Of a stretch of DNA of 64,000 bases, positions 24,168 to 26,569 are shown piece by piece. Within the stretch, counting starts at the first letter, position 1, and each line of letters opens with the position of its first letter. The notes under the pieces are model-generated. The model was not told the DNA's origin, did not search any database, and worked only from the letters and a program-made list of their open reading frames with translations. Origin of the DNA: Zygnema circumcarinatum SAG 698-1b (Eukaryota > Plantae > Zygnematophyceae); assembly GCA_037447605.1 (NCBI GenBank), contig CM074804.1, positions 930,001 to 994,000 on the forward strand, read 5' to 3'. A program made the position numbers and the translations under genes.

Positions 24168-24454
24168 GTTGCGCAGTTCAGAAATTTTCGACGGGATCCG
24201 TTGACCACTTAAAATAAGCCACGCTTAAGAAAAATCTGGAAGAACTACATATCCATGTGGTTATGACGTCATACAACAGCGTCATGACGATCACCATGGT
24301 CACATATGTCGCAGTTCGGGCCCCCTCCGCGGTGCCCGCAGTCCGCAAAAACGGAATATTCGCGGAGTTTTCCGCCAATCACTGCTTCCTTTTGACAAGA
24401 AATTTCAAATGCAAATTTTCGAAATTCCCCTTTCCTTTCAAGCAGGTTTCCTCC

Positions 24455-24730
24455 CGAACGCCAAGGGGCAGGTCAAGGGGCGGTGGTATCAGGATAGGGA
24501 GTATGGAGACTTACGCCATGATGGCACAGGGGATGAGGCACACGATGTCCGAGTTGCGATCGAGGACGGACTTGGTGGTGACCGACGTGTGTGTCAAGTG
24601 TCGTCGGGTGAGCGTCATGTGTCGGTGTGATGATGGGGACATGGTGCCAGTGTCCATTCCTTATAACGCGGTTTTAGTAGACTGTACGATGGCACTGACG
24701 GACGGCGTGGCGATGTCACTCGGCGTCTAG
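24455..24730 (+). pseudogene. 5'-truncated, divergent RNA polymerase second-largest subunit (Rpb2 domain 7, C-terminus)
   Basis: PRGRSRGGGIRIGSME ~ EGRSRDGGLRFGEME; MAQG ~ IAHG; TDLVVTDVCVKC...CRC zinc ribbon; VSIPYNAVLV ~ VRMPYACKLL; stop at the normal Rpb2 C-terminal position. Confidence 0.88.
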
Positions 24731-26216
24731 AGGCCTCTGACGTATGACGCCGTGTGCCCGTTGACGACTACCCTGATGTGTCTTAAAATGTCAGCGGTGT
24801 CACTCTCGGTGTCCACCATCAGACTCGTCGGCCTCATCGTGCCAAGTGGGGCTATAGACGCCGTTGTCACAGCGGGGTCGACGATGCTGGGAGTGTTGGG
24901 CCATGTGACGGTGGCGTGTGTGTTGTTTTGTGTTAGTCTCATCTTCACACCGTGGCTGTCTATCAGTGTCCCCGATGTGTCTACGTCGTCGTACACGTAA
25001 CAACAGCCCAGGACCCTATAGCCCATGTTTGACAGCGTCTTCAAGTACTCGACGACGAACGAGCACGAGAAGACTGCCGTCACCACTGTCAGTCTTGGCT
25101 GTAGTAGTGCCGTGATACTGGGCGTCATGAAGTCTTGTAGTGTCATTGGTACCACAAGAGTGCCACTGCCCCTTAGTACCATGGTCCTGACACTGTCCGA
25201 CAACGACATGCCGTCCTTGTACACCTTGACATTGTCGCCAGCATACTTGACCAGTGATTGTGTCAGGGACTTGTCGGGCTCGAGTAGTATAACGACGACG
25301 GTACTGCCTGACAGCTGTCGTTGTCTGACACACTCTCGTATCGACGTCATGGCCTGCCCCCTGCCTGAGCCAACGTCCACCAGCACCTTGATACCGGCAC
25401 TGGACAGCGCTGCCCTGTACAACGACCCCCTTATCCTAAAGCAGACGTTTGTCACACGTCTTAGGGTGGTCGGATCAGTCAGCCTCGTGATGTTGCATAT
25501 GTCCTGGATCTGCCTCAAGGTGTCACTGCTGCTTGGTGACATCTTGTCAGTCCTTGTCTTAACTTGGCAAACTTGGCAAACTTGGCAGTGTACACGGGCT
25601 CACCGTCGACGACGTCACAGGTCACGGACAGCTCGACTATGTGGCCTAATGTGTCACCCATGTCTATAGAAGACCATGTGCCTATAGTCGACATGTCCAC
25701 GTCGTCCTGTAGTATCGGCCTGTTGTCCATGTTCAACACTTCTATGGTCCTGACACGCTTGATCTTACAGGACTCCATCGTCCCGTCTCTGATGGCCACG
25801 ACCCCGTCGCATGGGGTTCCCAGTAGGCCAGTGTCGACATCGTGCCATGCGTGCTTGATAGTGTCACGATACAGCCTCATGACGAGACCGGGTGGTGTTA
25901 GTCCCATATTCGACAGTCTCTGATACTTGTCGGTCATCCACGCCAAGTCGTGTTCATAGGGGCACCGTTGACTGCTGTCGTCTCTCAGGACGTCTATCAA
26001 GTATGTCCTGTCACTGCTGACGTACTCGACGTCTAACACAACACTAGCCTGACACTGCGGATGTGTGACGCTGCTGGGCACGACTGACACTACTTGGGTG
26101 TCGTTGAAGACGAGGCAGTAGTACCAACAACACCCCGCTAGTACTGCCCAGCATCTGACACCGTCGACTTTGGGCACAAAGTGATACCTACTCTCGTCCA
26201 CTGTCATGACGTCGGC
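24727..26216 (-). pseudogene. viral-type mRNA capping enzyme (guanylyltransferase-OB-methyltransferase), 5'-truncated, one frameshift at ~25560
   Basis: Nucleotidyltransferase motifs I KVDGVR, III LDVE, IIIa YLIDVL, IV DGVVA and V KIK; motif VI RTDK is in the next frame, directly before a SAM-dependent MTase (VLVDVGSGRG, ILLEPD). Confidence 0.85.
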
Positions 26217-26569
26217 CGCAGAAAACTCGCCTCGGCGCACTTTTAACAAACTGGTTGGTTTTCTGGAGGTGCTGTGGACCGTACGAAAATGTACGACAGC
26301 ACGGCAAACTGCTTCTCTGGCCGTACAGTACAGGAAAAGGCACGGTTTCAGTTACCCTTTTTGACCGAGCGTGACCGATGGCCGAGGGTCTTGTGTTGTA
26401 CAATTTGGACTTATGGTGGTGACGCGATGCATACGTCACATTTAAAACTAGAAACCAGAAACTAGAAATCTGGAAATCAAAACTCAAAAACTGTGGTGGG
26501 CGGAACTCCCTCCCTGGCGAGCTTTTAGGAGCGAGAGGGAGAAGCATTGCAGGAGGGAGGAAGGCAGCC

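Follow-up and report, generated by a model that had tools for sequence, protein, structure and literature searches.

The DNA studied here is a stretch of 64,000 nucleotides from the zygnematophyte Zygnema circumcarinatum SAG 698-1b (assembly GCA_037447605.1, contig CM074804.1, positions 930,001 to 994,000 of the forward strand). This whole stretch is referred to below as the window, and coordinates are counted from its first letter. At 24460-26218 it contains an intronless, AA/TT-poor block of ~1.75 kb in which the C-terminal end of an Rpb2-type RNA polymerase subunit gene lies tail-to-tail with a frameshifted gene for an mRNA capping enzyme, a fused guanylyltransferase (GTase) and methyltransferase. 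Both genes are severed at the outer edges of the block, and their stop codons overlap on four bases, 24727-24730 (Table 1). An earlier note, made from the sequence alone, had described such an intronless block, cut at its outer edges and lying between host genes; Pfam, family alignments and composition all agree with this description.

The composition of the block differs from that of its surroundings. The observed/expected ratio of AA/TT was 0.57 in the block versus 1.20 across the remaining window, that of AC/GT was 1.53 versus 0.81, and the GC content of the insert was about 55% (53-56%). The block edges (~24460 and ~26218) are approximate, being placed by change points in dinucleotide log-odds together with homology. 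A composition scan revealed one short foreign insert only within the 64-kb window. Under a composition model trained on the capping gene alone, the Rpb2 piece scored +23.2, more than 236 of 237 host windows, and the single host window that outscored it is a microsatellite. Because the Rpb2 piece has the composition of the capping gene, both genes are assigned to one donor.

The avoidance of AA/TT in the donor DNA (24460-26218) extends to silent sites (AAA 1 vs AAG 16; GAT 4 vs GAC 45; GAA 2 vs GAG 11). At the protein level, the capping enzyme of the insert is lower in K, E, N and F than all 90 full-length relatives described below. As to the cause we can offer guesses: A/T runs might be read as slippage or stop signals, or thymine dimers might be avoided.

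Table 1. Coordinates of the foreign block, its parts and the adjoining host exons
Feature	Position	Strand	Basis
Whole foreign insert	24460..26218		Change points, edge-region comparison, bridging contigs
Rpb2-type RNA polymerase subunit gene, 3' end	24467..24730	+	PF04560; GRxxxGG motif, clamp zinc knuckles, PY motif, own stop
Overlapping stop codons of two convergent genes	24727..24730		Sequence
Capping enzyme, C-terminal part: GTase motif VI, linker helix, cap guanine-N7 methyltransferase (S-adenosylmethionine (SAM)-binding DxGxGxGQ)	24727..25560	-	hhalign 99.9%, 267 columns
9-bp unit, three perfect copies	25561..25587		TRF
Capping enzyme, GTase (motifs I KxDG, III, IIIa, IV, V) and OB domain	25588..26213	-	Family matches; Atlas; hhalign 99.7%
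First exon of VTC4-like inositol monophosphatase (IMPase) gene (start codon 23989)	23974..24189	-	Spliced contig ends at 23974 (sequencing runs X7, X11), GT donor, frame, IMPase matches
First coding exon of PRP4 splicing factor gene	26570..27645	+	PF08799, E 3.7e-12

Chromosomal Location of the Block

The junctions were checked using contigs over 23400-27400 from four sequencing runs of four studies (X1, X6, X7 and X11). X1 and X6 are possible source runs of the assembly; X7 and X11 are not so marked. The DNA run X1 yielded a single contig covering 23400-26600 at a depth of 29 versus 22.9 on the flank, and X6 a single contig covering 24373-26600. Depths of insert and flank were alike in the DNA runs (29 vs 22.9; 3.97 vs 3.6). 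The left junction was spanned by an X7 contig (23974-24965), and the right junction by contigs of X7 (26087-26600) and X11 (26134-26458). No base differences or gaps relative to the assembly were found in the contigs of the four runs. The block is genuine chromosomal DNA.

The earlier note had proposed that a failure to join the block to its neighbors would expose a chimeric assembly. Both junctions proved to be bridged, also by runs not marked as source of the assembly. An assembly chimera, or a contaminant misjoined to host DNA, is accordingly very improbable, even though two of the four runs are possibly the assembly's own source, no long-read piece is among the runs, and six runs with the same species label contain next to none of the stretch (18 of 24 runs contain part of it). 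Contigs bridging the junctions without differences in four runs of four studies, insert depth similar to the flanks and a frameshift common to three runs all speak against such an artifact.

X7 and X11 show the VTC4 splice joint and for this reason look like RNA; the VTC4 intron was covered in X7 and not in X11. A contig of X7 (23974-24965) connects the spliced first exon with the insert. That parts of the insert are covered in these two runs hints, weakly, at transcription reading through from the promoters on either side.

The Rpb2 Piece

The Rpb2 piece matched PF04560 (RNA_pol_Rpb2_7) at 24446-24727 of the forward strand with an E-value of 3.6e-8 and 34.1 bits, against a cut-off of 32.1. 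Its reading frame closes at the stop codon 24728-24730, after the clamp zinc-knuckle region; the upstream part of the gene is missing. From the GR motif to the stop, the piece measures 87 amino acids (aa), compared to a median of 98 in 69 closed tails (121 viral loci), a length that falls within the viral range, and it carries Ser where 119 of 121 viral Rpb2 motifs have Glu. It is 30-44% identical to the best giant-virus subunits and has no close relative, while its best PDB match is the yeast Pol III subunit C128 (E 1.7e-5). Word-seeded protein searches with this piece and with the GTase half of the capping gene gave no match. Two loci considered as relatives (L002 and L003) were rejected as ordinary giant-virus Rpb2 genes, matching at 42% over 58 aa.

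The Capping Gene

The capping gene is read on the reverse strand in two open frames, P0002 (25518-26213; GTase and OB domain) and P0001 (24730-25599; motif VI and methyltransferase). The reading frame changes at the 9-bp triple repeat 25561-25587, which is identical in the X1, X6 and X7 contigs. As all three runs cover this region, the frameshift is not an assembly error.

Searches of Pfam, NCBIfam and PDB sequences produced no match for either half. The first Atlas matches of the GTase half were PF01331 viral mRNA capping clusters (score 0.93), and the other half led to methyltransferases. With the GTase half as query, an unfiltered phmmer search across 1.84 billion representatives returned 64 matches at E ≤ 1e-3, among which there were no giant-virus capping enzymes. 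Sixty-two of the matches, 23-33% identical, are members or fragments of one family of enzymes of ~700 aa (P0005-P0116); the remaining two (P0004 and P0032) were discarded as repetitive and off-size. The methyltransferase half was also hit in 55 of the 64, at 34-93 bits, and the other seven family matches are fragments ending earlier. A family alignment of 46 members brought in 42 proteins from a larger database.

Both halves of the capping gene align along the one family alignment, at residues 244-457 (hhalign probability 99.7%) and 443-712 (99.9%), and are therefore halves of one gene. Since the alignment starts at family residue 244, the insert lacks ~243 residues at the N-terminus, the gene being truncated by the right junction. 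Against the family profile, the GTase half scored 134.7 bits and the methyltransferase half 170.2, compared to 25.5 for an asfarvirus-like capping enzyme. Of the 50 columns that are conserved in 90% of the 90 full-length members, the insert retains 36 and differs in 14; the catalytic Lys of motif I, the SAM motif and motifs III-V are among those retained. It is at most 29% identical to any family member (family median 31.5%). A single-sequence structure model of the GTase half was unusable, with a predicted local distance difference test score (pLDDT) of 38.6.

In plants, the guanylyltransferase and the methyltransferase of the capping machinery reside in separate proteins. Derivation of both pieces from the host, as decayed retrocopies or paralogues of its Pol I/II/III subunit and capping genes, can be virtually dismissed: although a cellular Pol III subunit is what the Rpb2 piece matches best in PDB (E 1.7e-5), the two capping activities form a single gene of a D1-type family, a membership that contradicts this origin; in addition, stops are absent from the frames, the stop codons of the two genes overlap and the composition is foreign. 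Cellular polymerases and plant capping enzymes were rejected as a source, as neither a host-like composition nor separate GTase and methyltransferase genes were found. The view that both proteins are far from the host enzymes holds for the capping gene, which belongs to a virus-type family; the Rpb2 piece alone cannot be placed by sequence.

A Family of Capping Enzymes with a TFIIS Ribbon

Thirty family proteins that were looked up were annotated as "hypothetical protein" at most, without accession, and came from Logan, JGI, ENA and NCBI sources. The structure model of one member, P0008, had a pLDDT of 87.5. According to Foldseek, its best match among solved structures was vaccinia D1 (E 4.8e-20), with residues 73-712 of the model aligned to D1 residues 34-841; among predicted structures (BFVD), it matched the enzymes of Tunisvirus, Pithovirus and African swine fever virus (ASFV) with E-values from 5e-24 to 1.5e-21. 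Identity to the matched structures was 10-13%. The GTase of P0008 superposed on the chlorovirus enzyme with Z 12.2 and an rmsd (root-mean-square deviation) of 3.2 over 236 aligned residues, and its last domain on cap N7-methyltransferases with Z 16-17 and rmsd ~3 over ~200 residues. The predicted family fold is thus D1-like, a single chain in which a triphosphatase-like barrel is followed by guanylyltransferase, OB and N7-methyltransferase domains.

Of the 90 full-length members, 74 have an N-terminal TFIIS-type zinc ribbon with the QxRxxDE motif. In a scan of 20 members, 11 matched either PF01096 or LEF-5, a related baculovirus family, and in a PDB search the ribbon matched RPA12 and TFIIS. 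A pattern search found both triphosphatase glutamate motifs in only three of 92 members (P0025, P0053 and P0065); judging by these motifs, triphosphatase chemistry of the usual kind may be lost in the majority of members. One member, P0048, has a NADAR domain before the ribbon (PF08719, E 1e-37).

In two trees, both obtained by quick searches, the insert protein grouped with P0025 and P0053, with a support of 90 in the Shimodaira-Hasegawa-like approximate likelihood ratio test (SH-aLRT) and of 96 without P0065, which was omitted from the second tree because long branches met. P0025 and P0053 carry the ribbon motif and intact-looking triphosphatase glutamates. The placement is tentative, as the branches are long and the composition is deviant.

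The family was not found in IMG/VR by scans with each half, a relative, the family alignment or the family motif. Searches for the DNA of relatives in GTDB (two relatives), JGI metagenomes, phages and plasmids were blank or returned chance matches only. Several loci were rejected as relatives: L001 rested on a 28-aa seed match in a bacterial-looking contig, L126 belongs to an asfarvirus-like contig, and L127 and L128 had no tblastn match. Neither this family nor a fusion between TFIIS and a capping enzyme turned up in the literature searched, which excludes most subscription papers.

Size and Nature of the Donor

The longest contig known was recorded for 76 family proteins: 33 of these contigs measured 19-34 kb, two 41-42 kb and two 15-19 kb, and among the 38 contigs of at least 15 kb only one exceeded 42 kb. 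For giant-virus Rpb2 contigs of at least 15 kb, the corresponding number was 53 of 69 (80 of 120 loci), a rough control taken from a different collection. Near-equal contig sizes occurred twice in three clusters (20,798 and 20,806; 27,291 and 27,337; 25,360 and 25,161). As the family contigs pile up at 19-34 kb, the donor was likely a small element with its own transcription machinery.

Altogether, the block is a young, dead foreign insert, probably derived from a DNA virus or virus-like element of ~20-40 kb, related to Nucleocytoviricota, that would have transcribed and capped its own mRNA. The earlier note had suggested a recently active, uncharacterised cytoplasmic virus or virus-like element of streptophyte algae. 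A foreign and young insert and an unnamed family bear out the first part, while "virus", "cytoplasmic" and "of streptophyte algae" can only be inferred, because no capsid gene was seen and the insert shows DNA contact, not infection.

A number of observations weigh against this interpretation. The donor size of ~20-40 kb is what the contigs point to, but contig sizes are not genome lengths; half of the longest contigs (38 of 76) are below 15 kb, sizes were unequal in two clusters (15,669 and 24,299; 31,148 and 27,355), and members within one cluster are not independent. A truncated 423-aa relative, P0024, lies on a 317-kb contig. The insert, a 1.75-kb fragment, has no capsid, packaging or DNA polymerase gene, and the association of the family with an RNA polymerase comes from this insert only. 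The Rpb2 piece is too short to be placed by its sequence. The insert's capping protein is a divergent member with a long branch and deviant composition, so the donor may differ from the bulk of the family, and as its own N-terminus is missing, a TFIIS ribbon in this enzyme is presumed from its relatives. Finally, capture by end joining is deduced from the lack of terminal repeats or a target-site duplication.

P0024 may be another endogenous copy in a cellular genome. An alternative donor is a conventional large Nucleocytoviricota virus (>100 kb) from a lineage not yet sampled, the short contigs of the relatives then being assembly fragments; the 317-kb contig would fit this. In its favor are also the fold and domain order, which are those of the capping enzymes of nucleocytoplasmic large DNA viruses (NCLDVs), and the free Rpb2, whose clamp zinc region resembles that of giant-virus subunits. 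NCLDV genes have been reported in Klebsormidium, and NCLDV inserts are known there and in moss (PMC5294986). We nevertheless consider a large virus unlikely: the family contigs stop at ~42 kb, with one of 38 above this size against 53 of 69 in the rough giant-virus control (80 of 120 loci), the IMG/VR scans did not find the family, and none of the 64 matches is a giant-virus capping enzyme.

Slightly less likely again is a donor of the proposed kind that lived elsewhere, its DNA coming from an element of an associated fungus or protist that entered the algal nucleus by chance. Compact elements related to these have mostly been described in fungi; fundsalphaviruses occur in 14 species there, and the moss elements fall within this group (PMC7017919). 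The presence of a single short insert in 64 kb also fits such an entry. On the other hand, integration into the nucleus of a walled cell would most simply reflect replication inside that cell, and the donor's composition, more extreme than in all 90 relatives, suggests a lineage of its own.

If the donor was such a small self-transcribing element, its genes would have been transcribed in the cytoplasm by its own multisubunit polymerase, with the capping enzyme bound to the polymerase, as in pGKL. This enzyme would act on nascent RNA, first transferring GMP through the lysine of the KxDG motif and then methylating N7. A tethered TFIIS ribbon could reach into the polymerase and rescue stalled complexes by transcript cleavage. 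Fusing the ribbon to the enzyme may save a separate gene in a very compact genome, an economy that the overlapping stop codons would also fit.

Age and Probable Capture of the Insert

No stop codons were found in 573 codons of the insert frames, which bounds neutral change at ~5-7% of sites (95%). The CpG observed/expected ratio was 0.90 in the insert versus 0.58-0.68 in flanking host DNA, showing no depletion. Damage is limited to one frameshift and a few changes at conserved positions. The statement that only one lesion is present, made in the earlier note, is thus correct for frame and stop lesions, but it overlooks the 14 of 50 conserved columns that differ and the Ser for Glu in the Rpb2 piece. 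The insert is a young, dead fossil, and neither protein can be made whole. An in-frame ATG (26205-26207, reverse strand) precedes the GTase lysine by 12 codons and sits close within the right junction; the truncated GTase frame starting there would be open if the strand were ever transcribed.

Neither a target-site duplication nor terminal repeats were found at the insert, and the edge regions match over only 5 bp. A random piece of the donor was likely captured by accidental double-strand-break repair through end joining in open promoter chromatin. The host neighbors, a VTC4-like gene (reverse strand) and PRP4 (forward strand), are head-to-head and both directed away from the insert, which consequently splits the promoter gap of the pair. 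The insert would lie in an open promoter gap common to two housekeeping genes and have no function, and it is probably neutral for the host. The identity of the VTC4-like gene is indicated by its PDB matches, eight of eight being IMPases, each weak (best E 0.16).

Elsewhere in the window, a piece of a NAM/NAC domain was found in an exon at 44556-45125 (forward strand, E 3.4e-4); given the range of NAC domains, this exon indicates that the host is a streptophyte. At ~33300-34420, a repeated unit with WQPVEWLF-like phrases in the open reading frame translations lies in a stretch that looks non-coding and is possibly a satellite or a degenerate mobile element.

Significance

The significance of these results lies chiefly in the capping-enzyme family and less in the insert. 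The small relatives of giant viruses known so far either have no RNA polymerase, as in mriyaviruses, or are yeast plasmids that lack a capsid and whose polymerase is fused and reduced. If the proposed donor is real, elements of 20-40 kb with a free Rpb2 and a fusion of TFIIS, triphosphatase, GTase and methyltransferase would bridge the gap to giant viruses. They could also account for the capsid-less 13-kb moss and fungal fossils, of which a free-living form has not been shown. Contigs of the relatives are already in public assemblies. Through the insert, a streptophyte joins the candidate hosts, and the fusion offers a testable case of capping and proofreading on one chain.

Comparison with Known Systems

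Yeast pGKL2 resembles the proposed donor: it is a DNA replicon of small size that encodes a multisubunit-type RNA polymerase of its own as well as a compact capping enzyme. Its polymerase (K2ORF6p-ORF7p) and capping enzyme (K2ORF3p) bind each other, and the polymerase is a beta-beta' fusion lacking most of the clamp (PMC6211774). The insert's Rpb2, by contrast, ends at its own stop codon after the clamp zinc region, which excludes the pGKL type as donor. Composition differs as well, the insert having ~55% GC while yeast virus-like elements have >75% A/T (PMC4431711). Among the donor types considered in the earlier note, the pGKL-type plasmid therefore drops out because its Rpb2 is not free, and an unnamed capping family with contigs mostly <42 kb comes in. 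Mriyaviricetes, giant-virus relatives of 35-45 kb, are described by Yutin et al. 2024 (PMC11253617) as having no RNA polymerase subunits; a mriyavirus was rejected as donor, given the Rpb2 piece in the insert.

Nucleocytoviricota share more with the family. Vaccinia D1, ASFV NP868R and the Marseillevirus and Pithovirus enzymes have the same trifunctional domain order and folds as the predicted family structure, and the Rpb2 subunit of Nucleocytoviricota is free, as in the insert, where the last 87 aa are present. The double jelly-roll capsid protein, A32 packaging ATPase, family B DNA polymerase and D5 primase-helicase of this phylum have no counterpart in the insert. The family differs in its shorter enzymes (~700 aa vs 800-1400 in the top matches), in the extra N-terminal TFIIS ribbon and in contigs that are mostly <42 kb.

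The closest described elements are the NCLDV-like regions of the moss Physcomitrella patens (Maumus et al. 2014, PMC4083422) and the fungal fundsalphaviruses, among which the moss elements nest (Gong et al. 2020, PMC7017919; 14 fungal species). The moss regions have a 13-kb consensus, 61 loci, 34% GC and broken open reading frames, with RPB2, a split RP1 (RP1n and RP1c), TFIIS and a trifunctional capping gene, and no capsid genes were found in them. RP1 is absent from the insert, and so is the DNA polymerase gene by whose tree these elements are grouped. Like the insert, these elements are intronless, compact endogenous blocks with RPB2 and a capping gene and without a capsid gene found. As NCLDV-like inserts with RPB2 and capping genes were already described in this moss, the kind of event is known, and it is the donor family that seems new. 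Three differences from the moss regions were noted: in moss, TFIIS is encoded on its own and the triphosphatase motif comes first in the capping enzyme (by eye, ~400 columns); the SAM motif ends in GGD (also by eye), in contrast to GQ in 87 of 90 members of the P0005-P0116 family; and the GC content is 34%, compared to ~55% in the insert.

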